A program made the position numbers and the translations under genes. Below are positions 6,527-62,398 of a stretch of 64,000 bases of DNA, one piece after another. A model generated the notes under the pieces. That model worked only from the letters and a program-made list of their open reading frames with translations, searched no databases and was not told where the DNA came from. The DNA lies in NCBI RefSeq assembly GCF_963921235.1, contig NC_086097.1, positions 173,540,001 to 173,604,000 on the forward strand, in the 5' to 3' direction. Position 1 is the first letter of the stretch, and every line of letters starts with the position of its first letter. This DNA is from Mobula hypostoma. Its lineage: Eukaryota.

Positions 6527-6693
6527 TCCTGGTGAAGAACTTCCGCCCAAAATGTTGATGTGTCCTGACGAAACGTTTCCGCACAAAATGTCAACGACTT
6601 ACTCCCCTCCTGAAATGCTACCTGACTTGCTGAGTTTCTCCAGATTTTGTGAGTGTTGCTCTGGATTTCTAGGTTCTGCAGAATATCTTGCGT
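6527..6693 (+). mobile_element. Penelope terminal-repeat remnant with two tandem degenerate hammerhead motifs
   Basis: CTGGTGA...cccAAAAtgttga followed by gtcCTGACGA...cacAAAAtgtcaac, then the conserved downstream tgctacctgacttgctgagtttctccag...tgttgct segment. Confidence 0.65.
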
Positions 6694-16300: not shown

Positions 16301-16508
16301 TTAATTAAGGAACCCTGTATTATTAATGAATACACTCTGAATCATAAAATTATTATTGGAGTCCATATGAAGAGATATGATCTAAAACATTGACCACCTA
16401 TGTGCTTCTGTAGATGCTACATGATCTACTTAGATCAGCTTGCAGTTTGTTTATTGATCTAAATCCTAGCAAAAAAAATCTGCATTCTGCATCGTTCCAG
16501 GAAATAAG

Positions 16509-21944: not shown

Positions 21945-22080
21945 ACAGCCAACATTTCGGGCCAAGACCTTTCTTCAGGAGTCCTGAAGAAGGGTCTTGG
22001 CCCAAGATGTCAACAGATTATTCTTCTCCATCGATGTTGCCTGACCTGCTGAGTTCCTCCAGCAGCTTCTGTGTGTTGCC
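21945..22080. mobile_element. Penelope terminal-repeat remnant: head-to-head inverted pair of degenerate hammerhead motifs
   Basis: Palindrome centred at about 21981: atttcgggccaagacctttcttcagga|g|tcctgaagaagggtcttggcccaagat. Confidence 0.75.
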
Positions 22081-30218: not shown

Positions 30219-31080
30219 AAACACGAGGAAATCTGCAGATGCTGGAATTTCAAGCAACACACATAAAAGTTGCTGGTGAACACAGCAGGCCAGGTAGCAT
30301 CTCTAGGAAGAGGTACAGTCAACGTTTCAGGCCGAGACCCTTCATCAGGACTAACTGAAAGAGCTAGTAAGAGATTTGAAAGTGGTAGGGGGAGGGGGAG
30401 ATCCGAAATGATAGGAGAAGACAGGAGGGAGAGAGATGGAGCCAAGAGCTGGACAGTTGATTGGCAAAAGGGATATGAGAGGATCATGGGACAGGAGGCC
30501 CAGGGAGAAAGAAAAGGGGAGGGGGGAAGCCCAGAGGATGGGCAAGGAATATAGTGAGAGGGACAGAGGGAGAAAAAGGAAAGAGAGAAAAAGAATGTGT
30601 GTATATAAATAAATAAATAATGGATGGGGTACAAGGGGGAGAACGGATGGGGTACGAGGGGGAGGTGGGGCATTAGTGGAAGTTTGAGAAGTCAATGTTC
30701 ATGCCATTAGGTTGGAGGCTACCCAGACGGAATATAAGGTGTTGTTCCTCCAACCTGAGTGTGGCTTCATCTTTACAGTAGAGGAGGCCGTGGATAGACA
30801 TATCAGAATGAGAATGGAACGTGGAAATAAAATGTGTGGCCACTGGGAGATCCTGCTTTCTCTGGCGGACAGAGCGTCAACTGTCCAGCTCTTGGCTCCA
30901 TCCCTCCCCCTCCTGTCTTCTCCTATCATTTTGGATCTCCCCCTCCCCCTCTCAAATCTCTTACTAGCTCTTCTTTCAGTTAGTCCTGACGAAGGGTCTC
31001 CGCCCAAAACATCGACTGTACCTCTTCCTATAGATGCTGCCTGGCCTGCTGCGTTCACCAGCAACTTTTATGTGTGTTGC
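30219..31080 (-). mobile_element. Penelope-like element, 5'-truncated, with an inverted terminal repeat and 14-bp TSD
   Basis: 30254-30460 is an inverted repeat of 30877-31080; GIY-YIG C-terminal remnant at 30674-30860; TSD tttatattctactc (30205-30218) / tttctattctactc (31081-31094). Confidence 0.88.
30317..30352 (-). ncRNA. Minimal type-I hammerhead ribozyme motif, intact core, GUU triplet
   Basis: Minus strand agtc-CTGATGA-agggtctcggcct-GAAA-C-GTT-gact; stem I agtc/gact, stem II agg/cct, palindromic AACGTT at stem III. Confidence 0.8.
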
Positions 31081-31094
31081 TTTCTATTCTACTC

Positions 31095-31505: not shown

Positions 31506-33169
31506 GTACCAGTCTAGCTGTATTCTTGTACAACACTATTGCTTCTTACCACCTCTGGCAGTGAAATGAAATTAAATGTATTTGCAAATCACTTTTCAAT
31601 GACTGCTGGGTGAATCAAATGAGTGTTACTGCATGCATACACACTACAGTTTAAAACATCAACACTATGAAGAAAGCATAGCAAAAGTCAGCGCATCCAA
31701 CAAAAAAGTTCATCATGATTCTGAACCTTCTGAAACAGAAAAAAGTTAAGAATATTGCTGGGACACAGCTCATGAAGCATGCAATGATTTAAGACTATTC
31801 TGTACATCACCTACTTGGTTAGGTTCCTACCTCCCACTGGACTTGTAATCATTCTTATAGACTAACAAAAGGGCTTTTAAAGTAATTATGTGTTCAAGTG
31901 TGGTCCCATACAAGCTACAAAGTAATAAAAAGGATCCTGTGACTTTTTCCTCATAATCCCACTTACCATATTTAAATTAAGATAGTACAGAATTCAGAGC
32001 CCATATTCCCACAAGCTGCTGCTATGGTAAAGAGATCAAACCAAAGGTTCATAACCAACATCTTTAAAATTTGTTCTGTTTTCCATGTATTTTTATTAAA
32101 TGTTACATTTTTAAATCTTACAGTTCTGACAAAGGCATAAATCTTTGACAGCTGCTGCTTTCCTCTGCAAACACATGTACTTTCTTCTTAAAATCTACCA
32201 TCATAAAATCCCACTGGACCAGGTCAGCAGAACACCTGCAATTCTTCATTCAGTTTACAGCACAAAGTCTAAAACGAAAAGTAACATTAATTGTTTCAGT
32301 ATCCTGCTACAGTTACATTTTTCACAAATTCCTGTGAACAAATGCTACAAGCATGAAATCATCCAGGCAACTCTGTCATCAGGAGGATAATTTTACCCCC
32401 CTCCCTTAAGCAGAACTCCAGTGGGAGCAAGTAGAAAAACTGGCAGCAATTACAAAACAACAGCACTTGAGACAATCTCGGGGGAAACCTGAGGAAACAT
32501 GCCACAGCAAATTAGAATAACTTTCACAGATACTTAATTGAGGATATCATCATTGCTATGGTACTTGACATGTTTGGATTTAAGATAATAATCATACATT
32601 TATATATTGTTTCTTTCCACACAGTTCTTTCTGCTTTTATAGCTTTTGCTAAAGCGTGTGTAACTGGTAAAGATTAAGGGACTGGGCGGAGTAGAGATTG
32701 AATTAATAGGCCAATTAAGCTGCATTATGTCTGGGTTGGAACACTAAATGAGCAATTGGACTGTTTCCGGAGCTTTTGGTCAATTGTTGTGTAGCAACCA
32801 TTAGACTCAATAGATCCCACTTTTCCAAAAGTCACTTTTATTGAATCCCCAAGCCTACCACCTTCCCATTGTCACATTCAACATTTTCTTCAATCCATCT
32901 GCTACTCTGGTCATAACCACTGCACCTAGAAATTTACTCCAGCTGTCATTCACTTTTTCAAAGCAGCATGTTTCATTGCTTGCCCAAAGCATTCTTGTAT
33001 TACTGTGAAATTGTGGAACAAATTACTATGACAGGTTTTTAAAAAGGGTGAGATGAGTACCAATCCATAAAAACGGGATTCCAATCTATTAAAGAAAGAA
33101 TTTGCATTGATATCGGACCAATTGAAAATCCAAAAGCTGTTCATGATCTTGACCATATCACTTCCCATC

Positions 33170-34280
33170 CAATCTCCTGAAAAAAATGCTATTCCCTTTT
33201 CTCAGTTCCTTCATCTCCGCCACATCTGTTCCAAGGACGTGACTTTCTATTCCAGGACATCAGAGGACAGGGTTCCATTCCCTCCACTATTAATGCTGCA
33301 CTCACCTACAAGTCCTCCATTTCCACACTCACCCCATCTTCCCACAGCCGTAAAAGTGATAGAGTTCCTTTTGTGCTCATCTATCACCCCACCAGCCTCC
33401 ACACCTTCTGCTATCTCCAAAAGGATTCTACCACTGAACATATCTTTACCTCCCTCTCTGCTCCTCCCCTCCCCCACTTTCTGCAGAGATCGCTCCCTGT
33501 GCAATTCCCTTGTCCATTTGTTCCTCTCCACCAATGTCTCTGCTGGCACTTATCCCTGTAAGCTGCCCAAGTGCTACATCCACCCGTATAATGCCTTCCT
33601 CACCTCCATTTATGGCCCCAAACAGTCCTTCCAGGTGAGGCAACACTTCATCTGTGAATCTGCTGGAGTTATCTATTTTGTCCGGTGCTCCGGATGTGGT
33701 CTCCTCTACATTGATGAGACCCGCTTAAATTGGCAGACTGTTTCGTCAGGCACCTCTTCATCATCCACCACAAGTGGGACTTCCCAGTGGCCAAACATTT
33801 TAATTCCCATTCCCATTCTGACGTGTTGGTCCAGGTCCCCTCTTTTGCCAAGATGAAGTCACCCTCAGAGTGGAGAAGCAACACCCTATATTCCATCTGG
33901 GGAGCCTCCAACCTGAAGGCATGAATATCAATTTCTCCTTCCAGTAAAATTCCCACCTCTGACATTTCATCTCTTCTCACCTATTACTTCTGGGTTCCAT
34001 CTTCCTTCCCTTTCTCCTATCTGATTCCTTCTTCTCCAGCTCAACTTTTCCCATCCACCTGACTTCACCTATCACCTTCCAGCTAGCTTCCTTCTCCTCC
34101 CCCCACCTTTTTATTCTGGCATCTTCCCCCTTCCTTCTCAGTCCTGAAGAAGGGTCTCAGCTCAAAACATTGACTGTTTGTTCATTTTCATAGATGATGC
34201 CTGACCTGCAGAGTTCCTCCAGCATTTTATATGTATTGCTTTGGATTTCAAGCATCTGCAGACTTGGTCGTGTTCATGAT
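33170..34280 (+). mobile_element. Penelope-like (Neptune-type) element 3' part: RT thumb, Cys linker, GIY-YIG endonuclease, terminal repeat
   Basis: AIPFSQFLHLRHICS; GTYPCKLPKCY; FICESAGVIYFVRCSGCGLLYIDET; PVAKHFNSHSH; degenerate hammerhead at 34140-34175 (GAAA to AAAA). Confidence 0.88.
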
Positions 34281-40657: not shown

Positions 40658-43060
40658 GCAACACACACAGAATGCTGCAGGAACTCAGCATGGCATGCAT
40701 CATCCATGGAAAAGAGTACAGATGATGTTTCGGGCTGAGACCCTTCATCGAGACCGGAGAAAAAGAAGACAAGGAGTCAGAGTAAGAACGTGGAGGGGAG
40801 GAAGAATCAAGGTGATAGGTGAAACCAGGAAGGGAGAAGGAATGAAGTAAAGAGCTGGGAAGTTGATTGATGAAAGAGATATAGGGCTGGAGAATGGGGA
40901 GTTTGATAGGAGAGATCAGATGGCCATGAAATAAAGAAAATGGGGAGGAGCACCAAAGGAAGGTGATGGGCAGGTAAGGAAATAAGGTAAGAGAGGGGAA
41001 TGGGAATGGTGAAGGGGGGGATGTTATTGGAAGTTCAAGAAATCGATGTTCATGCCATCAGGCTGGAGGCTACTCAAACGGTATATAAGGTGTTGCTCCT
41101 CCACACTGAGTGTAGCCTCATTACAACAGTCAAGGAGGCCATGGACTGACATGTCGGAATGGGAATGGGAAGTAGAATTAAAATGGGTGGCTGGAGCACA
41201 GATGCTCAGTGAAGTGGTGTGCCAATCTATGTCGGATCTCACCACTGTACGGGAGGCCACACCGGGAGCATCAGATACAGTACATGATCCCAACAGACTC
41301 ACAGGTGAAGTGTTGCCTCTCTAGGAAGAACTGTTGGGGACCTGAATGGTACAGGTTTCCCCTGCCATCCGAAGGTAGAGCGTTCCTATGAAACAGTTCG
41401 TAAGCCGAAATGTCGTAAAGCGAAGAAGCAATTACAATTTATTTATATGGGAAAATTTTGAGAGCGTTCGCAGACCCAAAAATAACCTACCAAATCATGC
41501 CAAATAACACATAAAACCTAAAATAACAATAACATATAGCAAAAGCAGTTATGGTATGATAAATACACAGCCTATATAAAGTAGAAATACTTTTCCACAA
41601 TCATTACTGAACTGTTCTCCGTAGCGAAAATCTCACGCAAGCGCCGTCGGAAGAAAATCTCACACAAGTGCTGTTGGCAAAAACACGGCGCAAGCGCTGT
41701 CCAGTAACCTTTAAGCTATGAAGCTGCCAAATCATAGCAAATAACACGTAAAAATACACAGCCTATATAAAGCAGAAATAATGTATGTACAGTGTAGTAT
41801 CACTTACCGGAATTGGTTCAGCGCTGAGCACACTGATGATGGTGTGTTAGACTAAGTCGTCGCAGGTTGGGTGGTGCAGTTGCCCCCACCCTTCGGGCCA
41901 CCAACCGATACCGATCCATGAAGCATGTAGGGGTGCAGCGGTAGCCGGGAGGCACACAGTACATCTTCAAGAAAAAAGCCAAAACAAACAAGCTAATTAA
42001 TTAGGTGCCGTCTGACACGTAATTGTCAGCCCAGATCAGTGCCGATTTCCGATTGCATCGTCTCTGATCTGGGCCGACAATTACGTGTCGGGCGGCACCT
42101 AATTAATTAGCATGTTTATTTCAGCTTTTTCTTAAAGAAGCGCTGTGTGCCCCCCGGCTACCGCTGCATTCTCTGCAAATTGGTATCTGTCCATGGCCTG
42201 GGGGTTGGGGTGGTGGGACACTGGGGTGTCATCTCGTCATCGTCTGTTTCCATTAGAGCAGGCTGGTCATCTTCTATCTCTGCCCGCCGCGATGTCGAAG
42301 GTCGAAGTTCGTCATCTGCTGTGGCTGATGTGGAAGGCTTGCTTGACTGCTGAGCCTCGCGCAGTTTTCTATCACACAGTTCTTTGTAAGGACTCAAACC
42401 ATCTTGTAAATATCCCCTAAACCTACGTACCCTTTGAAAATTAAAGTCGTACTTTATCATTGCAGCAAAAATCTCATGTAGTTGCTTCACATTCATTTCG
42501 CTACTGCATTCGGTTTCAATTGTTATCCTTTTTTCTTCCAATTGCATCAGCTCTTCATCTATCAGATCTCGGTCATGGGATGCCAAAACCTCTTCAACAT
42601 CATGTTTGTCAGCTTCCACAAGCCAAACTCACGTTGTCCTTACTTCGTTCACCACGATCAAAACGCTTAATTATGTCTAGTTTTATGCTAAGTGTAACAC
42701 CCTTACGAGCTCTTTCAGGCTTATCCGATACCTCAGTACTCATCTTGCTAATGGCTGCTCAATGCAACGTGTTTAAGCAGTGCTGTTCCGAATCCGGGGG
42801 AGAGCGGCTGCTCGGGGCGTGTGCTGACTTTTTATCGCGCGCTGCTTTTTTTTCGTAACAGTGAAAACACCTTCTGAAAGCGAAAACAGGGTACTAATGT
42901 AAGTCTTTCGTAACAGTGAGGTTTCGTAAAGCGAATGTTCGAAAAGCGGGGGACACCTGTAGTGAGGTAGAAGATGTACAGGCAGGTGTAGCATTTGTTC
43001 TGCTTGCAAAGATAAGTGCCAGGAGGGAGATCTGTGGGGAGGGACAAATGGACAAGGGAC
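40658..43060 (-). mobile_element. Penelope-like element 3' part, inserted in a Rex-Babar 3' UTR and split by a Tigger
   Basis: GIY-YIG remnant (ATHFNSTSHSHSDMSVHGLL..EEQHLIYRL); Cys linker GTYLCKQNKCYTC resumes after 42960; degenerate hammerhead at about 40722-40755; TSD-like tcactttttt at about 40646 and 43061. Confidence 0.82.
41352..42959 (-). mobile_element. Tigger/pogo non-autonomous DNA transposon, second copy of the 18323 family
   Basis: TA|CAGGTTTCCCC...GGGGACACCTG|TA; reverse-complement similarity to 18323-19735; ORF 42158-42619 is the Tigger C-terminal remnant. Confidence 0.9.
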
Positions 43061-46430: not shown

Positions 46431-46610
46431 CAGAGCTGTGATAGCTGTCCATGTGCAGAGGAATCTGGATAGTGAAAGCAAGCAGGTCAGGAGCTAAAAG
46501 AGACTCTGGTTTCCTACTTTCATTCAGCCATTTGCTCTTATGCAAATCTCTTGTGTCTGAAGGTCCTTGTATTAATGGAATCAGCTTTTCCTTCATCCCA
46601 TCACTTCTTC
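46431..46610 (-). CDS. VPS13B: VPS13B next coding exon, 180 nt, phase 1-1 (probably equivalent to human exon 19); missed by the ORF track
   Basis: Hand translation GRSDGMKEKLIPLIQGPSDTRDLHKSKWLNESRKPESLLAPDLLAFTIQIPLHMDSYHSSG matches the recalled human continuation (KEKLIPLLQGPSDTKDLHSTKWLNESRKPESLLAPDL...). Acceptor aaatctag|GA, donor CTG|gtaaga. In frame with the 62264-62398 exon. Confidence 0.95.
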
Positions 46611-47275
46611 CTAGATTTGGTTAAAAGGATTCTGTCAACAACTTCCTTTTAATATATTAATTTCTCAAATCATACACAAACAAACATCCTAACAACCAAG
46701 AAGAAAGGCAAAGCACATTGACCTATTTACCTGGAATCTTAACTTGAAATGATACTGTGAGAAAAACATATTCAATAAAAAAACAACAAAAAGTCTTTCC
46801 CATTCGCCAAGAGAATGTTGTTCCACTGCCTCAGATACATCCAAGGTTTTTCAACCCACAATGGAATATCCTTGACATAAGCTGTTTCGGGGAATAACAC
46901 CTTTATGGAATATGTTTTTATTGTTTTACTCAGAATTTCCAGGGGACATCACCTAGTTGAAGATACTTGGACAATAAGATGATTTTATATAAATTCACTT
47001 CTCTCAAGTGATCAGAGCAAGCCATTCATTAGAATAAGCATGTCATTCCAGTGAATTAAAAATATGCAGCAAGCCCTTGGGGAAGTTCTGTAGGATTTGC
47101 TCTGTGGAATCTTGGCAAGTGAAGTTATTTCATAGGAACACAATACTGTCCAATATAATTAATTTACTTTTTCTACCACAGCAAACCAAAAATACATAAC
47201 AAAAGATTGAAAGGGTAATCTGATTTTTCTTTTAAACGATCCAAGCCACAAGCAAAGAATTGTCAATAAGTACCG

Positions 47276-47357
47276 AATGGCCTTAAAATTGGAGTATATG
47301 TGTTTGTTTACAACCTAATGGCCTTAAAATTTGGGTCTGTGTGCTTGTTTACAACAT
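47276..47357 (+). repeat. Diverged 41-bp tandem duplication
   Basis: aatggccttaaaatt...tgtgtttgtttacaac occurs twice. Confidence 0.8.
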
Positions 47358-47542
47358 AGAGAAGTTCTCCAAGGGGATGGTCGGAATACAACCAACCACT
47401 CTATACAGAAAGAAAGTCTGCAGCCTGCAGTGCTGGTTAAAGCTCCTCCCTATGAGCCTACAATGCATGAACAAAACAAAAGACATCTTAACACCTTCTC
47501 CAGACCTATTTAATAAAATGTGATTGCAAATGATCACACTAA

Positions 47543-48359
47543 GGCTACGTCCACTCTAGACTGGATAAATCCGTAACCAAAGCTTTTTCTCTTCGTTTTG
47601 ATCCTCCATCCACAGTGAAGTGGCGTTTTCCTCCCTCGAAAACGGAGCTTTTCTAAAACACTCTCCAGAGTGTTTAAATCTGAAAACGCCAGTTGGCCAT
47701 TGCAGTGCTTACGGGGTAACCGGCTAATTTTAAAAACACTGTCATGATGTGCCGGAACAAATGGTGGTGGCATCACAGCATTTCACTGTTTTCTTGAACA
47801 CAACCTCCAACACCACAACAACAATATCTGACAATAGATGTATAACAGCCTAATGTAACATTGTATGGAAATACAAGATAACACTGATGCAGACATGTTT
47901 TATACATTTAACAAGGAGCTTTATTAATGTATTGCTTGTGCAAACATTCAATAAGTGCAACTGTCACTTTTGCCCAGCAACTCGTTTTATTGTACATGTT
48001 AAATACAACAAAATAGTACACAAAGACATGGCAAAAGTAAAGGCAAACAAATGAGGTAACAGCAAATTTCACTTTTGCCCAGTAACAAGCCTGATTGCAT
48101 TTAGCCGTAATTGCCGTCCCTTTCATCGGTGAAGAGACTATGGCTGCAGGAAATGTTTTTGGACAAACGAGCACCAAGTATACCGTTTCCTCTTCACTTG
48201 TTTTCTGTGTGGCTTGCGCATGCCCAGTAGGACAAGATACAGCCAAATACCCGTTTTAATATGGATGGAGGTATTTTCAAAAATGCCTGGTGTGGATGCC
48301 TATCGTTTTTATGCGAAACCGGCGTTTTTAGAATTATCCGGTCTACTGTGGACGGAGCC
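47543..48359. mobile_element. PIF/Harbinger non-autonomous element (817 bp)
   Basis: TIRs ggctacgtccac / gtggacggagcc, TAA target duplication (47540-47542, 48360-48362), subterminal tccac/tggat/gaaaacgcc repeats, no ORF. Confidence 0.8.
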
Positions 48360-48804
48360 TAAGAGCCATACATTCTGTAGTATAGTTCTTGCAACTCTTA
48401 AAGGATTGCTGCATTCTGAAAAAGTAAGCATCAAATCCTTATGTTTGCCTTACAAAGCAGCTAACCTTCTTGTTTCAGGTTCCATCCTCCCCTCAACATA
48501 ATTGCCAAGAACTTCAGCTAACATTGCAACTGCTTGAATTAGCACTCTTCCTCCACGTTATCCCACCACCATCCCAGTCCTCCCAACTCCTCCATGATAA
48601 GGAAGCCGCCTCTGAGACTTCAAGTTGGCACTGCAGCTCACAAATAATAAACAAATGAAGATAACCAACTGACCTGTACTTCTGTATTCAAATATAGTCA
48701 GTCTCAAGTGTTGGGATAATTCAAACTGCAATCACAGAAGCCAGGGTGATATTACTTCAACCTTGGTAGCCATGGTTGTCATTGGATACAAGCATAGCAT
48801 ACAG

Positions 48805-48875
48805 TACATTAAGAATCCAATTGAAGCAATGTCCAATTTTTACATTAAGAATCCAATTGAAGCAATGTCCAATTT
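48805..48875 (+). repeat. Perfect 36-bp tandem duplication
   Basis: tacattaagaatccaattgaagcaatgtccaattt(t) occurs twice. Confidence 0.95.
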
Positions 48876-48919
48876 CCAAGCCTTTATACCTCCACTACGA
48901 AGACTGATTTGTTGATATA

Positions 48920-50523
48920 CAAACCCCATTTCCAGAAAAGTTGGCATATTTTCCAAAATGCAATAAAAACAAAAATCTGTGATATGTTAGTTCACGCGAA
49001 CCTTTATTTAACTGACAAAAGTACAAAGAAAAGATTTTCACTAGTTTTACTGACCAACTTAATTGTATTTTGTAAATATACACAAATTTAGAATTTGATG
49101 GCTGCAACACACTCAACAAAAGTTGGGACAGAGTTAAAGTAAGATTGAAAAGTGCACAGAATATTCAAGTAACACCGGTTTGGAAGACTCCACATTAAGC
49201 AGGCTAATTGGTAGCAGGTGAGGTATCATGACTGGGTATAAAAGTAGCGTCCATCAAAGGCTCAGTCTTTGCAAGCAAAGATGGGTCGTGGCTCACCCCT
49301 TTGTGCCAAAATTCGTGAGAGAATTGTTAGTCAGTTCAAAAGGAACATTTCTCAACGCAAGATTGCAGAGAATTTAGGTCTTTCAACATCTACAGTACAT
49401 AATATTGTGAAAAGATTCAGAGAATTCAGAGACATCTCAGTGCATAAAGGTCAAGGTTGGAAACCACTGTTGAATGCGCGTGATCTTTGAGCCCACAGGT
49501 GGCGCTGCCTAAGAAACCGTCATGCTACTGTGACAATTATAGCCACCTGGGCTCGGGAGTACTTCGGAAAACCATTGTCATTCAAGACAGTCCGTCCCTG
49601 CATCCAGAAATGCAACTTGAAACTGTATTACGCAGGGAGGAAGCCATACATCAACTTTATGCAGAAACGCCGGCAAGTTCTCTGGGCCCGAGCTCATCTC
49701 AGATGGACCGAAAGACTGTGGAACCGTGTGCTGTGGTCAGATGAGTCCACATTTCAGCTAGTTTTCGGAAAAAACAGGCGTCGAGTTCTCTGTGCCAAAG
49801 ATGAAAACGACCATCCAGATTGTTATCAGCGAAAGGTGCAAAAGCCAGCATCTGTGATGGTATGCGGGTGCACCAGTGCCCACGGCATGAGTGAGTTGCA
49901 TGTATGTGAAGGTACCATTGACTCTGAGGCGTATATTAGGATTTTAGAGAGACATCTGTTGCCATCAAGGCGACGTCTCTTCCCGGGACGTCCATGCTTA
50001 TTTCAGCAGGACAATGCCAGACCACATTCTGCACGGGCTACAACAGCGTGGCTTTGTAGACACAGAGTGCGTGTGCTTGACTGGCCTGCTGCCAGTCCAG
50101 ATCTATCTCCTATTGCAAATGTATGGCGCATCATGAAGAGGGGAATCAGACAACGGAGACCACGGACTGTTGAGCAGCTGAAGGCTTATATCAAGCAAGA
50201 ATGGACAAAATTTCCAATTGCAAATCTACTACAATTAGTATCCTCAGTTCCAAAATGATTAAAAAGTGTTATTAAAAGGAAAGGTGATGTAACACAATGG
50301 TAAACATGCCTCTGTCCCAACTTTTGTAGAGTGTGTTGCAGCCATCAAATTCTAAACTTGTATATGTTTACAAAATACAATTAAGTCGGTCAGTAAAACT
50401 ATTGGAAATCTTTTCTTTGTACTTTTGTCAGTTAAATAAAGGTTCATGTGAATTAATGTATCACAGATTTTTGTTTTTATTGCATTTTGGAAAATATCCC
50501 AACTTTTCTGGAAATGGGGTTTG
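48920..50523 (+). mobile_element. Full-length Tc1 DNA transposon (1604 bp), about 210-bp TIRs, TA TSD
   Basis: TA|CAAACCCCATTTCCAGAAAAGTTGG...CCAACTTTTCTGGAAATGGGGTTTG|TA; TIRs about 48920-49131 and 50310-50523, with inner aaaagttgggac direct repeats. Confidence 0.95.
49281..50303 (+). pseudogene. Tc1 DD34E transposase pseudogene (340 codons, two in-frame stops)
   Basis: MGRGSPL...HTH, WSDES, QQDNARPH, SPDLSPIAN (catalytic E to A; 34 residues after the second D); TGA at 49488-49490 and 50256-50258; no frameshift. Confidence 0.92.
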
Positions 50524-50599
50524 TAGATACTTACAGATATGGATGTCTGCAGATGATATTTAATATGAGATCTAAACCAGAATAATATATAATTTTGAA

Positions 50600-50790
50600 T
50601 AAACTCTTCTTGGGCTTCCACCCAGGTATAGGTATCGATTATAACCAATGTTTTGATGATAAACTCCGCCATCTTCATCAGGGATGATGCCCGGTGAATG
50701 GTGAATGATGCATGCCTAGCCCAGTGGTATTCATAACCCTATAGTCCGTCCCTCCTGATTGATCTGTCTCATCCAATCAGATTTCCATTC
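50600..50790 (-). mobile_element. Terminal repeat of a second Penelope-like family, with a degenerate long-stem-II hammerhead motif (50645-50683)
   Basis: Minus strand ccCTGATGAagatggcggagtttatcatcAAAAcattgg; stem II gatg/catc. Confidence 0.55.
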
Positions 50791-51059
50791 TTGAACTTAC
50801 AAGCCATACCCAGGTTAGAATATCTCGACTGTGCGCTCCCAAAATATTATTAAATTAAAAATTCTGACTTTACTCTCTATATTTGCTTCTACAAACTGCA
50901 GAACTAATTTTCTCTCTCTCTCTACTTTCTGTAATTCTTCTTCCTTTTTTGCCTCAAATGTTTTTAATGCCATTCATTATAATACTTTGGAGGTATGGTT
51001 CCCATATCGTGTTATTTTTGACAAAGACAATTGTAAAAACGGAATCCATCTGTTATCTA

Positions 51060-54000
51060 TTGGGACCTCTTCTGGTGCAGGTATAACCTGTTCAAAAAGG
51101 ACGGGTTACACTTGAATCCTAGGGGGACCAACATCCTGGCGGGGAGATTTGCAAGGGCTACTGAGGTAACTTTAAACTAGAATGGTTGGGGGGTGGGAAT
51201 CAAATTAAAGAGACTAGGAGAGAGGAGGTTAGTTCACAACAGGGGGATGGGAACAAGTGCAGAGAGACAGAGGGGTGTAAAATGAGGGTAGAAGCAAAAA
51301 GTAGCAAGCTGAAAAGTAAAAGTGGCAGGCCGGCAAATCCAGGGCAAAAATCAAAAAGGGCCACTTTTCAACATAATTGTATAAGGGCTAAGAGTGTTGT
51401 AAAAGCAAGCCTGAAGGCTTTGTGTGTCAATGCAAGGAGCATTCGTAACAAGGTGGATGAATTAAAAGTGCAGATTGTTATTAATGAATATGATATAGTT
51501 GGGATCACAGAGACATGGCTCCAAGGTGACCAGAGATGGGAGCTCAACATTCAGGGATATTCAATATTCAGGAGGGATAGACATGAAAGAAAAGGAGGTG
51601 GGGTAGCATTGCTGGTTAAAGAGGAGATTAACACAATAGAAAGGTAGGACATTAGCCAGGAGGATGTGGAATCGATATGGGTAGAGCTGCATAACACTAA
51701 GGGGCAGAAAACGCTGGTGGGAGTTGTGTACAGGCCACCTAACAGTAGTAGAGAGATTGGGGATGGTTTTAAACAGGAAATTAGAAATGTGTGCAATAAA
51801 GGAACAGCAGTTATAATGGGTGACTTCAATCTACATATAGATTGGGTGAACCAAATTGGTAAGGGTGCTGAGGAAGAGGATTTCTTGGAATGTATGCTGG
51901 ATGGTTTTTTGAACCAACATGTCAAGGAACCAACTAGAGAGCAGGCTACTCTAGACTGGGTATTGAGCAATGAGGAAGGGTTAATTAGCAATCTTGTCGT
52001 GAGAGGCCCCTTGGGTAAGAGTGACCATAATATGGTGGAATTCTTTACTAAGATGGAGAGTGACATAGTTAATTCAGAAACAAAGGTTCTGAACTTAAAG
52101 AAGGGAAACTTTGAAGGTATGAGACCTGAATTAGCTAAGATAGACTGGCTAATGACACTTAAAGGGTTGACAGTGGATACGCAATCGCAAGCATTTAAAG
52201 ATCGCATGGACGAACTACAACAATTGTTCATCCCAGTTTGGCAAAAGAATAAATCAAGGAAGGTAGTGCACCCGTGGCTGACAAGGGAAATTAGGGATAG
52301 TATCAATTCCAAAGAAGAAGCATACAAATTAGCCAGAAAAAGTGGCTCACCTGAGGACTGGGAGAAATTCACAGTCCAGCAGGGGAGGACAAACAGCTTA
52401 ATTAGGAAGGGGAAAAAAGATTATGAGAGAAAACTGGCAGGGAACATAAAAACTGACTGTAAAAGCTTTTATAGATATGTGAAAAGAAAAAGATTGGTTA
52501 AGACAAATGTAGGTCCCCTACAGACAGAAACAGGTGAATTGATTACGGGGAGCAAGGACATGGCAGACCAATTGAATAACTACTTTGGTTCTGTCTTCAC
52601 TAAGGAGGACATAAATAATCTTCCGGAAATAGTAGGGGACAGAGGGTCCAGTGAGATGGAGGAACTGAGGGAAATATATGTTAGTAGGGAAGTGGTGTTA
52701 GGTAAATTGAAGGGATTAAAGGCAGATAAATCCCCAGGGCCAGATGGTCTGCATCCCAGAGTGCTTAAGGAAGTAGCCCAAGAAATAGTGGATGCATTAG
52801 TGGTAATTTTTCAAAACTCTTTAGATTCTGGACTAGTTCCTGAGGATTGGAGGATGGCTAATGTAACCCCACTTTTTGAAAAAGGAGGGAGAGAGAAACC
52901 AGGGGATTATAGACTGGTTAGCCTAACATCGGTGGTGGGGAAAATGCTAGAGTCAGTTATCAAAAATGTGATAACAGCACATTTGGAAAGCAGTGAAATC
53001 ATCGGACAAAGTCAGCATGGATTTGTGAAAGGAAAATCATGTCTGACGAATCTCATAGAATTTTTTGAGGATGTAACTAGTAGAGTGGATAGGGGAGAAC
53101 CAGTGGATGTGGTATATTTGGATTTTCAAAAGGCTTCTGACAAGGTCCCACACAGGAGATTAGTGTGCAAACTTAAAGCACATGGTATTGGGGGTAAGGT
53201 ATTGATGTGGACAGAGAATTGGTTGGCAGACAGGAAGCAAAGAGTGGGAATAAACGGGACCTTTTCAGAATGGCAGTCAGTGACTAGTGGGGTACCGCAA
53301 GGCTCAGTGCTGGGACCCCAGTTGTTTACAATATATATTAATGACTTAGATGAGGGAATTAAAGGCAGCATCTCCAAGTTTGCGGATGACACGAAGCTGG
53401 GCGGCAGTGTTAGCTGTGAGGAGGATGCTAAGAGGATGCAGGGTGACTTGGATAGGTTAGGTGAGTGGGCAAATTCAAGGCAGATGCAATTTAATGTGGA
53501 TAAATGTGAGGTTATCCACTTTGGTGGCAAAAACAGGAAAACAGATTATTATCTGAATGGTGGCCGATTTGGAAACGGGGAGGTGCAACGAAACCTGGGT
53601 GTCATTATACACCAGTCATTGAAAGTGGGCATGCAGGTACAGTAGGCGGTGAAAAAGGCAAATGGTATGCTGGCATTCATAGCAAGAGGATTCGAGTACA
53701 GGAGCAGGGAGGTACTACTGCAGTTGTACAAGGCCTTGGTGAGACCACACCTGGAGTATTGTGTGCAGTTTTGGTCCCCTAATCTGAGGAAAGACATCCT
53801 TGCCATAGAGGGAGTACAAAGAAGGTTCACCAGTTTGAATCCTGGGATGGAAGGACTTTCATATGATGAAAGACTGGATCGACTAGGCTTATACTCTCTG
53901 GAATTTAGAAGATTGAGGGGGGATCTTATTGAAACATATAAAATCCTAAAGGGATTGGACAGGCTAGATGCAGGAAGATTGTTCCCGATGTTGGGGAAGT

Positions 54001-54317
54001 CCAGAACGAGGGGTCACAGTTTGAGGATAAAGGAGAAGCCTTTTAGGACCGAGATTAGGAAAAACTTCTTCACACAGAGAGTGGTGAATCTGTGGAATTC
54101 TCTGCCACAGGGAACAGTTGAGGCCAGTTCATTGGCTATATTTAAGAGGGAGTTACATATGGACCTTGTTGCTAAAGGGATCAGGGGGTATGGGGGGAAG
54201 GCTGGTACAGGGTTCTGAGTTGGATGATCAGCCATGATCATACTGAACAGCGGTGCAGGCTTGAAGGGCTGAATGGCCTACTCCTGCACCTGTTTTCTAT
54301 TTTTCTATGTTTCTATC
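51060..54317 (+). mobile_element. CR1 LINE, 5'-truncated, young: ORF2 (APE endonuclease + RT) intact except two in-frame stops
   Basis: ORFs 51186-51647, 51666-53645 and 53649-54218 share one frame, separated by TAG codons. Motifs NARSIRNK, GITETW, GDFN, SDH, QHGF, PQGSVLGP, FADD; (TTTCTATG)-type tail. Confidence 0.95.
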
Positions 54318-55627
54318 TAGGGACAGTATGTGCTGTTATAATGGATTTAAAAAACCCCAACATGAGCAAAGCACCATGAAAATAAACTAAATATTTAGAT
54401 CTCAGTAGAGTTATTAAACCAACAATTTGAATAGAATGTTGGATTAAGATCTTTGTTGCAGTACTAGATGACCACCCACCACTTGAAAAGGCAGATTTCA
54501 CAAACAAATGAATAATCAGTCTCAGCAGTTGAGGCAACTATTCACACTGGAGTTACAGGACTTGCAGTACCATTATTTCACACCAAAGCAATACATTTAC
54601 GGTATCAATTGTTCACCCAACTTTTAAAACAGAAACTAAGTACTGTCCAATACTCGATCAGAAGCCACTAATGTTTATCTAAAATCCTGGAATGATTCCA
54701 CTTAGATTCGGAACTATTTAATCAAACCTCAGAGATTTCTCAGAAATCCTTGAGAGAAAGAAATAAAAGAGTAAAAGAATGTAAAGAAGACAAACCAGAA
54801 CAAAAGAGAAATGTGATAGATCCAAATATACCTGAAAAACTAAGGAAATAGAATATTTGAATGAAATAAGAGAAAAAAGATAAATAAGATTCATCCTTTG
54901 AATTTTTATTGGGATGGTGGGGGAGGGGCTGGTTAAACATTCAGAGGTAGAATAAGAATCAGGTATTTTATCACAGGCATGTGCCGTGAAATTTGTTATC
55001 TTAGCAGCAGCAGTTCAATGCAATACATGATCTAGCAGAGAAAAAATAATAAATAAAATAAAAATAATAAAGAAATAAACAAGTAAATCAATTACAGTAT
55101 ACATATATTGAATAGTTTATAAAAATTGTGCAAAATGGAACTATTTTAAAAAGTGAGGTAGTGTCCAAAGATTCAATGTCCATTTAGCGTATTGAAGTTT
55201 CAGTCAGTCCGGTGAGTAGGAAAAAATAAGTTTCTGGACATTAGTGGCTTTTATATTCAAATCTGAAATATATGAATTCTTGTTATATATGGTCTATTGT
55301 TTTATTAACTTTTTCACTTGTGTGGTGATTTTGTGGACATTCCCTGGTTGTGCACGAACAGATGCTGAGTGGATACTCACTTGAACTACTACAGACTATC
55401 TGGGGATGCCACTCATGTGAACATTGTCTTTGAAGAAGATCCAGGATAGTGACCTAGAACTTACAGTAGAACAACATTAAACATTCAAGTCAGAAGGTGG
55501 CTGCTGTGGGCTCTTGTCCTTCGAGACAAGAAGCAGATAAAACAGTATCAATTGAGAAACACCTGGCTATGTAACTACGTGGAGGAACAGGGCTTACAAG
55601 GATATTGGCTGAACACATGAAATTGGG

Positions 55628-55774
55628 CAACACACATAAAAGTTGCTGGTGAACGCAGCAGGCCAGGCAGCATCTCTAGGAAGAGGTGCAGTCGACGTTT
55701 CAGGCCGAGACCCTTCGTCAGGACTTTTATGTGTGTTGCTTGAATTTCCAACATCTGCAGAATTCCTGTTGTTT
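55628..55774. mobile_element. 147-bp Penelope mini-insertion (inverted terminal repeat piece plus 3' terminus) with 13-bp TSD, in a CR1 tail remnant
   Basis: TSD acatgaaattggg at 55615-55627 and 55775-55787; inverted repeat gcaacacacataaaagt / acttttatgtgtgttgc. Confidence 0.88.
55690..55725 (-). ncRNA. Minimal type-I hammerhead ribozyme motif, intact core, GUC triplet
   Basis: Minus strand agtc-CTGACGA-agggtctcggcct-GAAA-C-GTC-gact; stem I agtc/gact, stem II agg/cct, loopless palindromic stem III (ACGT). Confidence 0.85.
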
Positions 55775-56199
55775 ACATGAAATTGGGACTAGTTGGGTGG
55801 ACAGTATGGTCAGCACACACTGGATGAGCCAAGGGGCCTGAATACTTGCAGTGTTGCACTATTACCGTATGGATGTCAATGGCTCTAGACAGTGGCAACA
55901 AATTGGGAGGTAGTACCACAGAAACCATGGGAACTTTTTGCCATTATGACTGTACATATCCTCACTACAACATAAAGGTGGTGGATTTGGAGGATTTTTA
56001 AGCTAGTCAGTTGAGTAACTGGCAAACAAATAGTTTGCTCCAGAATTTGTTTCATTTCTTATGATACTTTGCATGTGTACAAGTCAATAATTTGTATTGT
56101 AAGAAAGTGAATCACTTCAGGCTCAGTAGATTTGCCCCACTGAAGTAGCCACAGTATTATGCAGGTGGTCCTGCTGAGATCCTGTTCAGTGCTGACTTC

Positions 56200-59100
56200 C
56201 AGGGTGTTGATGATGAGGAAACAGAAATGGCATTATATATCAAGGCCATTGTTTGCATTTCCAGAGCACTTGCATTCTGTCCACAGTGACCATTCCGAGC
56301 TCCCAGTTGCATGCCATTTCAATTCCTCTTCTCATTCCTACACCAACAAGCCCATCCTCGGCCTTCCCTACTGCAGGGTGGAACTCAAAGCAAACTAAAT
56401 TAACAACAACTCATATTCTACCTGAATAGCTTATAGCCCAAAGGTATGAACATTGGTTTTTCAGTTTCAGGGAACCCTCGCATCCACTGGTTCTCCTGCC
56501 AGCCCATCCTCTCCCTCCTTTTCATTTCTCTTTGATCCTTCCATTTCTGTACCCTTTCCCATACCACCCGACTGCCCAACACCCAATCATCCAGTTTCGT
56601 CTTCCTCCTCTCCTTCCAATTCCCTGTCTACTTCTGATTCCATCACCCTTCAACTCTCCCCTAATGGTTTCCATTATCACCTTCCTTTCTTTCTCATCTG
56701 GTAGCATTCATGTGGCCAGTGATCATCCTCTAGGTTATCTCTACATTCACCCTCCCATAAGACTATAAGACATAGGAACAAAACTGTACAATCCCAATGA
56801 CTACCCAATGACTTGGCCTCCAACGCAGTTAATTCCACAGATTCATCACCCCCGGCTAAAGAAATTCCCCCTCACTCTGTTCTAAATGGATGTCCCTCTG
56901 AGACTGTGCCCTCTGGTCCTGAACTTCCACTATATAAGAAACATCTCCACATCCACTCAATCTAGGCCTTTCAATATTTGATTAGTTTCAATGAGATCCC
57001 CCCCTATTCTTCTAAATTCCAATAAGTACAGGCACAGAGCATCAAACGCTCCTCATATGTTAACCCATTCATTCCCAGAATCATTCTTGTGAACCTCCTC
57101 TGGACCCTCTCCAGTGTCAACACATGTTTTCATTGATAATGAACCCAAACGTCCTCAATGCCTTATAAAGTCTCAACATTACATCCTTGCTTTTATACTC
57201 TAATCCTGTCAAAAAGAATAATAATGTTGCATTTTCCTTCCTTACCACCAAGTTAACCTGCTAGTTAACCTTTAGGGAATCCTGCAATAGGACTCCCAAA
57301 TCATTTTGCACCACTGATTTTTGGAATTTCTCTCCATTTAAAAAATAGACTATGCCATTATTCCTTTTACCAAAGTACATGACCATAGACTTCCCTACAC
57401 TATATTCCATCTGCCATTTCCTAGCCCATTCTCCCAATCTGTCCAAATCCTTCTGCAGATTCCCTAATGCCTCAACACGTAACTTTGTATCAGCTGCAAA
57501 CTTGGTCACAAAGTTCCAACACCAACCCCTGCGGAACACCACTAGTTACTGGCAGCCAACCAGCAAAAAACCCCTTTATTCACACTCTTTGTCCCCCCCC
57601 CCCACCATTCAGCCAATCTTCCATCCATGCACGTATTTCTCCTGTAGTACCATGGGCTATTATCTTGAGTAGTCTCATATGTGGCATCTTGTCAAAGGCC
57701 TTCAGAAAATCCAAGTAAACAACAAACGCATTGACATTTGCAATTTTCCAGTCCTCTAGAACCATTCCAGAATCTAGTGATTCTTGAAAGACCATTAATA
57801 ATGCTTCCACAACCTCATCAGTTACTGTTTTCAGAACCCTGGTGATCCATCCATCTGGTCCAGGTGACTTTCAGATCTACCTTCAGATCTTACAGTTTCC
57901 CAAACACCACCTCATTAGTAATACTGACTACACTCACGTCTGCCTTCAATACTCATGAACTTCTGGCATACTGCTGCTGTCTTCCACAGTAAAGACTGAC
58001 TCAAAATACTTACTAAAATCATCTGCCATTTCTTTGCCCACCATTACTACCACTCTAGCATCATTATACAAAGTCTTATATCCATTCTTGCCTCTTTTTT
58101 ACTCTTTATATGTCTAAAAAATCTTTTGGTATCTTCTTTTAATACCATTAGTTAGCTTACTTCCATATTTCGTATTTTCTCCACTTATGTTTTTTTTAGT
58201 TGTCTTCTGGTGGTTTTTAAAAGCTTCCCACTCCTCCAACTTCACACTAATTTTTGTGCCATATCATATGCTACATCTCTTTTGCTTTTTTGCTGTCTTT
58301 GACTTCCCTTATCAGCCACATTGCCTCACCCTCCCTTTTGAATACTGCTTTGGGATGTATCTATCCTGCAACTTCCAAATTGTCCCCCAGACATTCCACT
58401 GCTGTTCTGCCATCATCCCTGCTTGTGTCCCCTTCCAATCAACTCTGGCCAGCTTCTCTCTCATGCCCCTGTAAACTCCCTGTAATCCACTTTATCTTCT
58501 CCTTCTCAAACTGCAGGGTAAATTCTATCATAATATGATCACTGCCTCCCTAATCAAATCTGGTTCATTACACAACACCCAATCCAGAATTGTCTTTCCC
58601 CTAGTGGGCTCAGCCATAAGCTACCCGAAAAAGACATCTCATAGGTATTCTATGAATTCCATCTCTTGGAATCCAGCATCAATCTGATTTTCCCAATCTA
58701 CCTGCATATTGAAATCCCCCATGACTATCATAACAATGCCCTTATTACATGCCTTTTTCATCTCCTGGATACTGTTTAAGGGCCTGTATATAACTTCCAG
58801 CGGGGCCTTTTTACCGTTGCAGTTTCTTAACTCTATCCACAATGTTTTTACATCTTCCAATCCTATGTCACCCCTCTCTAAGGATTTGACTTCATTTTTT
58901 ACCAGCAGAGCCACCCCAACCCTTGCATTGAAAAGACCTGCCTGTCCTTTTGATACAAGGTGTATTCTTGGATGTTAAGCTCCCAACTATGATCTTCTTT
59001 CAGCTACAACTCAGTAATGCACACAACATCACACCTGTCAATCTTTAATTGCACTACAAGGACATCTGCTTCAATCCGTATACTACATGCTTTCAAGTGT

Positions 59101-60270
59101 AACACCTTCAGTCCTGTATTCACCACCATTTTCAATTCTGCCCCCATGTTACACTTCAGCTCATCCCAGAGACTGTAATTTTGCCCTATCATCTGCCTGT
59201 CCTTCCTCACAGTCTCACTACACAATGTATCAACTTCTGCACCAATTGCTCCACTGTCAGCCCAATCACTCTGGTTTCCATCCCCGTCAAATTAGTTTGA
59301 ACCCTTCCCAACAGCTCTAGTAAACTGGAGCACAAGAATATTGGTCTCAGGTTCAGGTGCAACCCACTCTTTTTGTACACATCATACAGTAACTTCCTCA
59401 GAAGGGATTCCAATTATGGATAAATGTGAAACCCTGCCCCCTGCACCTCTCCCTCAGCCACTCATTCATGTGTACTATTATTCTATTCCTACCATGACTA
59501 GCATCTGGTACTGAGAGTAATCCAGAGATTACTAACTTGGAGGTCTTCCATAACTCCCTATTTCCCCTTTCTATGTATGTCATTAGTGCCAATGAGCATC
59601 ATGACCTCTGGCTGCTCACCCTTCCTCTTTTAAATCTTATGCAGTCTCTCAAAGATGTCCTTGACCTTCGCACCGGTGAGGCAAAACATCATCCTGGCTT
59701 CTCTTTTGTGGCCAGAGAATCTGCTGCCCATCCCCTTAACTATTGAGTCTCCTATCACGATCGCTCTGCCTGACTTTACCCCTCCCTGCTGAGCCTCAGA
59801 ACCAGCAACACTGCCCATGACCTAGTTGCTGCTCCTGTGGCCTGATAAGGAATCTACCCCATCAGCAGTACCAAAGGGATATACTTGTTGCTGACCTCTC
59901 CCCTCTCCTCTCCTGGCTCCCTGCCTTTTCTTTTGTCTTTCTCCATATATCATCTACTTGACCAAATTTCATGATACAATATACCTAAGCGTCATAAACC
60001 TGATTCTTATTCTGCCTCAATCTAGAATGTTCCCCTCCCTCTCCTTTACCTGATTCGATCTTATCATCCTTCCATCTCTTTTGGTTCACCAATCACCTAT
60101 TGGCCCCCTTCATGTCATTATCCCTCTCCTCTACCTCAGTGTGATGTAGGGTTTCAACCCAAGATGTCAACAACTCTTTTACCCCAGAGGTGCTGCTCAA
60201 CTTGCGAAGAGCCTCCAGGAAATTGTTTGTTGCCCTAGATTCAAGCATCTGCAATCTCCTCTGTATCCGC
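56200..60270 (+). mobile_element. Old Penelope 3' part (56200-56757 and about 60010-60270) split by a CR1 insertion
   Basis: HSELPVACHFNSSSHS GIY-YIG C-terminal remnant; pyrimidine-rich UTR resumes after the CR1 and ends in the degenerate terminal repeat (..gttgccctagattcaagcatctgcaatctcc). Confidence 0.6.
56758..59900 (-). mobile_element. CR1 LINE, old and heavily deleted, retaining part of an SGNH-esterase-like ORF1
   Basis: RT remnants (KFAADTKL, DFLKAFDKMPH), endonuclease (IYRPLNS, MGDFN), ORF1 remnants (AIVIGDSIV, GAKVKDI, VISGLL, NEWLR). Confidence 0.85.
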
Positions 60271-61069
60271 TTGTGATTCTGTATCAGATTACAACATCAG
60301 CATTTATTTTGCTTGTTTCTCTCATTTATTGTGGTGGTAGTGGTGAAAGGTTTAGAAAATGATGGTGAAATAGCCTGGTTTTGTAATGGCCAATATATTT
60401 TTGTACATGGCTGGTGTTGAAGAGAGAGAATAGATTAAAACAATGAACACACTTCATATGGATTGGGTGCCAATCAAGCAGGGTGCTTGCGTTGGACAGT
60501 GTCATGACTCAAGTATTATTGGAACTGAATTCCTTATCACATGTGGAGAGAATTCCATTACACTCCCGGCCTGTGCATTGTAGATGGTGGAAAGGCAACT
60601 TCAACTTAACTTCCATTAAAAAGGTCAATCTCAGAAGAAACACAGCACTGTTATTTGAAGCACATGGAGAAGCCCAAACTCCATCTAATTTCTTCAAGGT
60701 GTTTTAATTTCAAAACATTAAGCTCAGTTGGACAGTTGAAATGTTTCCCGCTTGTGAAATCAGACATCCTGGCAATCATTCATAAACCTACAGCAAACTT
60801 CATATAAAGATAGGAGAGAAGTTTCACACTGAGTTCAGTCACTAAGAAACAGGTGAAGATGATTAAAATTTCACACCAACAACTATCTATAAGAAAGAGT
60901 TTAATCTCATCATTTTAGATCTTTATGATAATCCAATATACCATCTATTTGGCGTTTTCTCATAATAAAGTCATTGTTATTCATGAAACTACTTAAAAAT
61001 ACAAATGCTAGATAATACCACATTTTAAAGCATTATTGTTTTAAAACTCTCCCAACTTTTGAGCACATC

Positions 61070-61455
61070 TACATGAAACATTGCCGTAGAAAAGCAGCAT
61101 CCATTATCAAAGATCGTCACCACCCAGGTCCTGCTCTTTTCTTGCTGCTGCCATCAGGTAGAATATACAGGAGCCTCAGGACTCACACCACCAGGTTCAA
61201 GAACAGTTACTACCCCTCAGCCATCAGGCTCTTGAACAAAAAGGGATAACTACACTCATTTAAGGACTCTTTTATCTTGTTATTTTATGTTTTTGTTATT
61301 TATTGCTACTTATTTATATCTGTATTTGCACAGTTGTCCATTGCTAACAGCTGCTGTTCCATAGATTTGCTAAGTATGCCGCAGAAACAGAATCTCAGGA
61401 TTGTATGTGGTGACATGTATGTACTCTGATAGTAAATTTTACTTTGAACTTTGTA
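61070..61455 (+). mobile_element. Rex-Babar LINE 3' fragment
   Basis: ctgctgccatcaggtagaatatacaggagcctcaggactcacaccaccaggttcaagaacagttactacccc (LLPSGRIYRSLRTHTTRFKNSYYP). Confidence 0.8.
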
Positions 61456-62263
61456 AACTGAACATAGATTTCAAATAGTCACCATTTCTAGAATTTGAGA
61501 CCACTCCAAGAAAAAGGGTCAAATCTCTTCTCTCCTTTACAGTATAAATGAGCAATGTAGTGGTAATTACCTATTGAACTCCACGTCTGAAATTCAGCTC
61601 TTTTGAATTGAGAGATGGACTTCAATGCATATTTATTTTCACATCAAGCATTTAGTGTTTAATAACATAGGACAAGTTACTGACCTATTAAACTTTATGG
61701 CTTACATGGGTATGGAAGGAACTATTCTCTACTTAGATTATAGAATTGTTTTGCGGATGTATATAAGAATTTGAATGAAATGTGTTAAAATTGAAACTGT
61801 ATTTAATAGAGATGATTAACCAAAGTTAATTTAAATTAATCAACGCAATTCTGAATGTATGTTAACTGCTGTCATTTTAAGCCATTTTCTCTTGCAAGAA
61901 CATGACTAAATGTACTGCTTTAATTAAGTGGAGCATGCCACATGCACAGACCTTAAGACAGCCTTGTACATCAAAAAATTATACATTAATTCTTAACAGT
62001 GAAACTTCAGGGAATACAAACTCCAAAGCAGTTTCAGCCAGATTGTAAATAAGATTATTATTTTCACTGCCTAATCATTGCATATAGTAAGTAGAACTTT
62101 TAACACAATAAGATTATCCACTGGCAAAACAACACACCTTTTGGGAGAGAAAGCTGATTCATGGCAGACAAGCAAACTCTAATTTCAGTGACTTCCCTTA
62201 TAAAGAGATCAGTCAATTCTCCTATTCAGGCAATAAACTTTTACATGTTCCAGCTGCACATAC

Positions 62264-62398
62264 CTGGGGCTTTGGCACAAGCTTTTATTGATCCCATGGT
62301 CCCCGAAACACATTTTACCAATGATGTGCTACAGAATTTCAACTCAACGTTTTGGATAGAACCCTCCAGAGTTGGCAATGGATTCTGGGATTTCACAC
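62264..62398 (-). CDS. VPS13B: VPS13B (COH1) internal coding exon, 135 nt, phase 1-1 (probably equivalent to human exon 18)
   Basis: Translates GVKSQNPLPTLEGSIQNVELKFCSTSLVKCVSGTMGSIKACAKAP, nearly identical to recalled human VPS13B (GVKSKNPLPTLEGSIQNVELKYCSTSLVKCASGTMGSIKICAKAP). Acceptor tttcttttattag|GT, donor CAG|gtatgt. Confidence 0.95.

Follow-up and report, generated by a model that had tools for sequence, protein, structure and literature searches.

Minimal hammerhead ribozymes (min-HHRs) in the repeats of Penelope-like elements (PLEs) have been known since 2014, when Cervera and de la Pena (PMC4209133, Fig. S3) gave a consensus made up of the boxes CUGANGAH and GAAAN, a G...C pair, a palindrome, an NUH triplet and one unpaired base before stem II, with G10.1-C11.1 as the closing pair at a consensus level above 80%. 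The 56 motifs on their list include none from a shark or ray, so that a ray copy adds a host group to a kind already described. In their account of S. mansoni, a lone min-HHR did not cleave and cleavage by dimers and trimers was weak. For the Poseidon element PAc of the lizard Anolis carolinensis, Frangieh et al. 2024 (PMC11167929) report that cleavage by the hammerhead required the Penelope protein and that, in the RNA-seq data they present, no reads ended at the cut site. Two other settings of type-I hammerheads are also relevant: those in introns of the amniote genes RECK, CTCL and DTNB, which PMC6155905 describes as resembling canonical motifs and as showing conservation among mammals, birds or reptiles, and the non-LTR retrozymes (PMC7229834; bioRxiv 10.64898/2026.07.22.740005), which these sources report from one chondrichthyan genome.

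The locus considered here lies in the ray Mobula hypostoma, within a 64,000-nt stretch of contig NC_086097.1 (positions 173,540,001 to 173,604,000; hereafter the window), in which a sequence-only reading had pointed to a minimal type-I hammerhead on the minus strand at 55690..55725. From 55725 to 55690 the minus strand reads AGTC CTGACGA AGGGTCTCGGCCT GAAA C GTC GACT, and the boxes, the GUC triplet and stem III are letter for letter as that reading had given them. Its parts are stem I (AGUC/GACU), CUGACGA, an unpaired A, a 4-bp stem II, GAAA and GUC, with a stem III that is a loopless palindromic ACGU (a 15.2-16.2 palindrome with a zero-nucleotide loop III). By standard hammerhead numbering the predicted scissile bond follows C17, i.e., it falls between 55694 and 55693, the position proposed before. 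The copy thus has the CUGANGA and GAAA boxes, the NUH triplet, the unpaired base at 9/10.1 and the palindromic, loopless stem III, and it shares with the PLE pseudo-LTR motifs depicted in PMC4209133 the fuller forms CUGANGAH and GAAAN, the G at 10.1, a short stem I and a location in the 3' repeat. Unlike most of them it has a U at 11.1, and an inverted arm has been swapped in for the U-rich 5' flank. Judged by its letters, the motif fits the PLE min-HHR class in every testable feature except the base at 11.1, and it is placed there.

The motif is real and is a member of a repeat family. Eleven copies were tabulated in the window, and the removal of one misregistered row left 10 that could be aligned, divided evenly between the strands (5 of 10 each way) with no orientation bias. 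Both boxes, the UH, the stem III pairing and the 4+4 stem pairs are retained only in the copies at 55725 and 30352, and of these two core-keeping copies only 55725 has the GUC triplet, the other having GUU. No copy among the 10 carries the full set of consensus features, and 55725 comes nearest, which bears out the earlier ranking of this copy as the best preserved in the window.

The layout of stems first proposed for the motif stood for the 4-bp stem I, the boxes and stem III, and failed for stem II, which had been drawn with 3 bp (AGG/CCU). That register was rejected on the folding model, in which it has a predicted probability of 0.02, against 0.86-0.95 for a register in which the A that follows A9 (at 55714) stays unpaired and four pairs, GGGU/GCCU, form around CUCG; the 4-bp register also agrees with the consensus published in PMC4209133. 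In it the closing pair is G10.1•U11.1 instead of G-C. Position 11.1 is a C in 8 of the 10 window copies, and positions 11.1-12 read CG in three, CA in five and TG in two, a spread such as CpG decay would leave. The 55725 copy has its TG in common with the 95%-identical 30352 copy, however, so the G•U pair may mark the subfamily instead of reflecting decay. Nor should it be disabling alone, since by our own count 8 of the 56 PLE representatives listed in PMC4209133 carry G•U at 10.1-11.1; no measured rate for the G10.1•U11.1 change was found in the literature passages searched.

The link to Penelope, which the sequence-only reading had proposed as a terminal-repeat origin, comes from three sister copies, and the 55725 copy itself is too truncated to retain any ORF. 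The hammerheads at 30352, 34140 and 40755 each lie downstream of same-strand remnants that match two ray proteins, P0057 and P0058, i.e., in a terminal repeat that follows an RT/GIY-YIG ORF. The first belongs to a sister insertion at 30219..31082, of the same young subfamily and the same two-armed build, whose minus arm holds an endonuclease-end remnant, the hammerhead 30352-30317 (with GUU) and the tail, and whose plus arm holds a broken hammerhead (30982-31017) and lacks the tail. The other two are older Penelope-like remnants: one on the plus strand at 33148..34280, with a broken RT-thumb/linker/GIY-YIG ORF (33148-33932), the 3' repeat, the decayed hammerhead at 34140 and a tail, and one on the minus strand at 40658..41342, with an endonuclease remnant (41342-41015) followed by the decayed hammerhead at 40755. 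In the Atlas clusters nearest to P0058, part of the members have HTH_animal, GIY-YIG (16-77% where listed) and RVT_1. A CX4CxxC linker stands ahead of the GIY-YIG-like region both in P0058 and in the window at 43062-42958, like that described for Neptune and Nematis PLEs by Craig et al. 2021 (PMC8557442), and by this linker motif alone (CX2-5CxxC between RT and EN) the family would be placed in a Neptune/Nematis-type clade. Pfam gave no domain for five broken Penelope-region frames or for P0058, and for P0057 only a sub-cutoff RVT_1; no full-length element is present in the 64-kb window. Our literature search returned no paper on this Penelope family in sharks or rays, and repeat databases and subscription papers were outside its reach, so that Repbase, Dfam, subscription papers or preprint supplements may already contain it.

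Some further observations on the family can be added here. The minus-strand hammerhead of 30219-31082 is the only other copy in the window to pass the full descriptor used below, and the insertion that carries it is larger than the one at 55.7 kb. The ray protein P0057 is publicly annotated as 'chitinase domain-containing protein 1 isoform X1'; it resembles a Penelope RT-to-endonuclease fragment throughout its length, and its name is therefore probably a mis-annotation. A decayed terminal-repeat copy on the plus strand at 60118-60268 lies antisense in the same intron as the 55725 motif; in the pre-mRNA, weak pairing between it and the 55.7-kb copy would be possible.

The insertion that brought the motif to its present place is 148 nt long and consists of a 99-nt terminal-repeat piece and an inverted 52-nt tail piece, joined via a 3-nt overlap at 55723-55725 and bounded by a target-site duplication (TSD) of 12-13 nt. 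With element positions numbered from stem I, the 99-nt piece (55627..55725, minus strand) covers positions 0..98: it begins at the outer edge of stem I, runs in the sense of the host gene VPS13B and is without the tail of about 35 nt, and it is 95% identical to 30352-30254 and 94% to 30982-31080. The 52-nt piece (55723..55774, plus strand) comes from the 3' end of the same element and includes the tail, covers positions 82..133 and is 90% identical to 30219-30270. The upstream copy of the TSD, at 55775..55787, is identical to the downstream copy at 55615..55627, base 55627 being common to the latter and to the end of the element. The insertion created a perfect 17-bp inverted repeat (arms 55739-55723 and 55643-55627, spanning 55627..55739) that surrounds the hammerhead and covers the stem I letters AGU; the motif has lost its native U-rich 5' flank, which the inverted arm replaces. 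Copies in the window end at about 98-102 or at about 133-140, two classes from which it follows that the tail of about 35 nt is present at one end only. The 5' truncation, the inverted truncated partner and the one-end tail of 30-40 nt are those described for EN+ PLE insertions in PMC8557442; compared with the insertions described there, this one is very short and has a clear TSD. It is also like the non-LTR retrozymes (PMC7229834; bioRxiv 10.64898/2026.07.22.740005) in being a short, non-coding, PLE-related unit with a type-I hammerhead. Those, as described in the same sources, consist of units repeated head to tail in tandem, with two or more hammerheads, whereas here there is one motif between TSDs and the junction is inverted.

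The anatomy suggests a mode of insertion for which PAc, as presented in PMC11167929, provides the closest parallel. The GIY-YIG endonuclease of the element would nick both strands 12-13 nt apart. The first nick would prime reverse transcription at the tail end, with 52 nt copied, and the second would prime about 35 nt further in, with 99 nt copied through an uncut or rejoined hammerhead as far as the outer edge of stem I, whereupon the two cDNA ends would anneal over 3 nt and be filled in. PAc likewise has two 3' ends a tail-length apart, and its priming on both strands would yield the two-armed build seen here. The longer cDNA spans the cut site, so its template must have been uncut or rejoined, and here too PAc, which uses uncut RNA, offers a likeness in that the cDNA went through the hammerhead. 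Unlike PAc, this family probably belongs to another PLE clade, and protein-assisted cleavage in vitro is a property of PAc, the 55725 copy being known from its sequence.

Junctions at the outer edge of stem I were seen in three insertions, i.e., at 55725, in a head-to-head pair near 21981 (21980/21982) and at 6525-6596, the last including a 36-nt tandem duplication of the motif (6525/6561). Contigs from other genomes also step back by 35 nt at the stem I edge, and the break does not fall at the cut site. A breakpoint hotspot had been considered from contig joints that end at 55725 and was set aside, for the reference used in the comparison itself ends there, and the joints listed were 15 of 58.

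The host gene was also named correctly beforehand, as was the orientation of the motif within it. Searches with five VPS13B homologues placed two consecutive exons on the minus strand, both with AG/GT ends: one of 135 nt upstream of the motif at 62264..62398 (95% identity to shark and skate VPS13B, E 2e-18; the frame 62396-62265 is likewise 95% identical to both), and the next, of 180 nt, at 46431..46610 (75-92% identity by tblastn), whose residues continue those of the first. As both exons are on the minus strand, the motif lies in the sense of the 15,653-nt intron between them (46611..62263), about 6.5 kb from the donor and about 9.1 kb from the acceptor, and from the gene structure the intron, with the motif, should be transcribed. 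The five homologues revealed no further VPS13B exon below 46431 or elsewhere in the window, and for want of an exon below 46431 the placement of the lower window within VPS13B is an assumption. An ORF at 25376-24885, suspected to be a VPS13B exon, was dropped when its search returned no relative.

The age of the insertion was approached through four of 24 listed sequencing runs, three of them non-RNA (from organisms B, C and D) and one putatively RNA (X16). In organism C, a contig runs from 55970 to 55776 and then from 55615 to 55202, with 195 and 413 nt on either side of the joint 55776/55615, and skips 160 nt, i.e., the 148 nt of the element plus 12 nt for one TSD copy. In organism D, one contig carries 55591 and 55777 only 15 letters apart. 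The flanks in these two organisms are about 4-6% diverged from the window, and those of organism B, on two contigs, differ at 7 of 1,026 nt (about 1%). The contigs of organism B reach 25 nt into the element on one side and 22 nt on the other, lengths below the 31-letter threshold that cover the junctions only and not the motif, and they suggest that the insertion is present there. The site is thus empty in 2 of the 3 other species compared, and the orthologous conservation seen for RECK-type hammerheads is absent, organisms C and D both lacking the insertion. It is therefore likely that the insertion is recent, in which case the good preservation of the 55725 motif would likely reflect how little time it has had to decay, and its youth argues against a conserved role. 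Matching contigs in the three non-RNA runs numbered 44,481 (the run of organism B), 13,691 and 15,355, with depth concentrated on the element, figures that are not copy numbers; like the PLE min-HHRs described in PMC4209133, the copies are chiefly solitary and truncated and very abundant. No RNA run was listed as containing the sequence, and contigs of the putative RNA run lay on repeat parts only, with none in 55200-55568 or 55815-56265, and contigs by their nature cannot show RNA ends.

Folding predictions, from a model that leaves out tertiary contacts and proteins, give the lone motif little prospect of an active shape. In the 36-mer, a core-blocking helix of G5-G8 with C15.2-C17 has a probability of 0.96-0.98, and the dimer-ready fold a probability of 8e-4 alone and 6e-6 in context. 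Two monomers score -20.0 kcal/mol and the best cofold -28.3, whereas an active double hammerhead is put at -9.5. The probability of stem I falls from 0.83 when 47 nt of 3' sequence are included to 0.03 when 55 nt are, and the enclosing fold made by the 17-bp inverted repeat reaches -44.3 kcal/mol (z -4.6; none of 200 shuffles was equally stable). Sister copies in their native flanks nevertheless have stem I probabilities of 0.00-0.2, which weakens an idea once entertained, that the inverted repeat uniquely silences the 55725 copy. As these copies fold poorly too, and as the model ignores tertiary contacts and proteins, folding is a weak discriminator.

Taken together, it is very probable that the motif is the hammerhead end of a Penelope-like retrotransposon, carried by a 148-nt, two-armed insertion with a TSD in a VPS13B intron, and that it is probably a recent arrival and probably inert in host RNA. 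That the short hammerhead boxes might instead have arisen by chance in the intron had some claim to attention, given that the bare boxes (CTGANGA-N8-30-GAAA) are unenriched in the window (8 matches where 5.94 are expected, a count reached in 23 of 100 shuffles) and that the 36-mer is no more stably folded than its shuffles (z -0.37). The covariance-model (Infernal-type) check that the sequence-only reading had suggested, run against Rfam, likewise returned no hammerhead family at E<=10, either over the whole window or over 55600-55800, its other matches in both being sub-threshold miRNA and snoRNA hairpins. Against this, the full descriptor with paired stems finds two loci in the window, 55721 and 30348, where only 2 of 200 first-order Markov simulations gave any match at all, and sequences within 13 mismatches of the 36-mer occur at nine places, where 30 simulations averaged 0.1. 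The motif also sits at a fixed place downstream of Penelope ORF remnants, and the repeat family together with this position in the element refutes chance, the probability of which we consider negligible. A domesticated intronic ribozyme that regulates VPS13B processing, after the manner of RECK, CTCL and DTNB, is only slightly less remote. The precedent of PMC6155905 is real, and the 55725 motif is like the hammerheads described there in being single and in the sense of its host intron, with an intact core. It differs from them as a minimal motif at the end of a high-copy transposon that is missing at the orthologous site in two relatives, at flank divergences of about 4-6%. Its loopless stem III and 4-bp stem I preclude what is found in RECK-type motifs, i.e., a stem III that closes in the monomer and an extended stem I, and the lost U-rich flank and the equal split of copies between orientations weigh further against such a role; there is no sign of function for this motif.

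A less implausible alternative, which we nonetheless judge improbable, is conditional cleavage without consequence, in which a few nascent transcripts would be cut whenever Penelope protein is at hand or a sister copy pairs in trans through ACGU, the exons being joined all the same. Cleavage chemistry is possible because all catalytic positions are intact and a GUC triplet is present, a Penelope protein did activate a PLE hammerhead in the in vitro assays of PMC11167929, stem I is predicted to be free for about 50 nt of transcription, and sister sequences are so numerous that partners in trans may exist. In the model, though, the active dimer lies about 10 kcal/mol above two monomers, and the open interval would last less than 1 s at the rate of 3,800 nt/min given in PMC2995048. 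The same intron contains no other hammerhead copy in the same sense, the nearest with an intact core being 25 kb downstream, past the next exon, and even the expressed anole element yielded no cut-site reads in the data of PMC11167929. The reading that we prefer, an inert insertion, would play out as follows: in the pre-mRNA the monomer would be unable to close its loopless stem III, and G5-G8 would turn to C15.2-C17 as partners; once some 55 nt more had been transcribed, the inverted repeat would capture the 5' strand of stem I; and cleavage would require a second copy or Penelope protein inside that short interval, so that the most likely outcome is removal of the intron by splicing with the motif still whole. 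If a cut were made, it would probably leave splicing unimpeded, by analogy with hammerhead-cut introns, whose splicing PMC2995048 (citing Dye 2006) gives as efficient; the one ribozyme that blocked splicing was a fast HDV ribozyme (PMC2995048, citing Dye 2006 and Fong 2009). The suggestion that the motif is a latent self-cleavage site accordingly found no support as anything meaningful, given the young insertion, the core-blocking helices, the lack of a same-sense partner in the intron and the PLE min-HHR precedents; latent cleavage is possible and, on the model and these analogies, unlikely.

As it stands, the 55725 copy is one more instance of an RNA motif described in 2014 and matters little as such. 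It has a modest value as a dated and cleanly bounded insertion whose arms fit the priming from two start sites, on both strands, that was seen in vitro for the anole element. Were protein-assisted or trans cleavage in introns to hold in cells, it would bear on whether PLE hammerheads cut in vivo and on what they cost host genes. The broader idea, that young, core-intact Penelope hammerheads in introns are switched on by Penelope protein or by meeting nascent copies, is a long shot; if true, transposon activity would cut host pre-mRNAs, that of VPS13B included, at fixed sites, a trans-acting, transposon-controlled layer of RNA cleavage.

The window contains other mobile elements that were noted in passing. 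A Tc1-type DNA transposon at 48915-50528 has inverted ends of 219 nt that are 94% complementary, and a 255-aa frame with DDE_3 and HTH_Tnp_Tc3_2. A long LINE remnant on the plus strand at 51165-54218, putatively CR1-like, has endonuclease and RVT_1 domains and an open frame of 665 aa, and related fragments lie at about 150-2200, 16400-18000 and 57000-59000. A repeat of 1.4-1.6 kb is present in two opposite copies, 18321-19738 and 41349-42961, that are 89-96% alike and probably represent a DNA transposon; each has a long internal hairpin (18956-19187 and about 41925-42176) with sub-threshold miRNA matches in Rfam.
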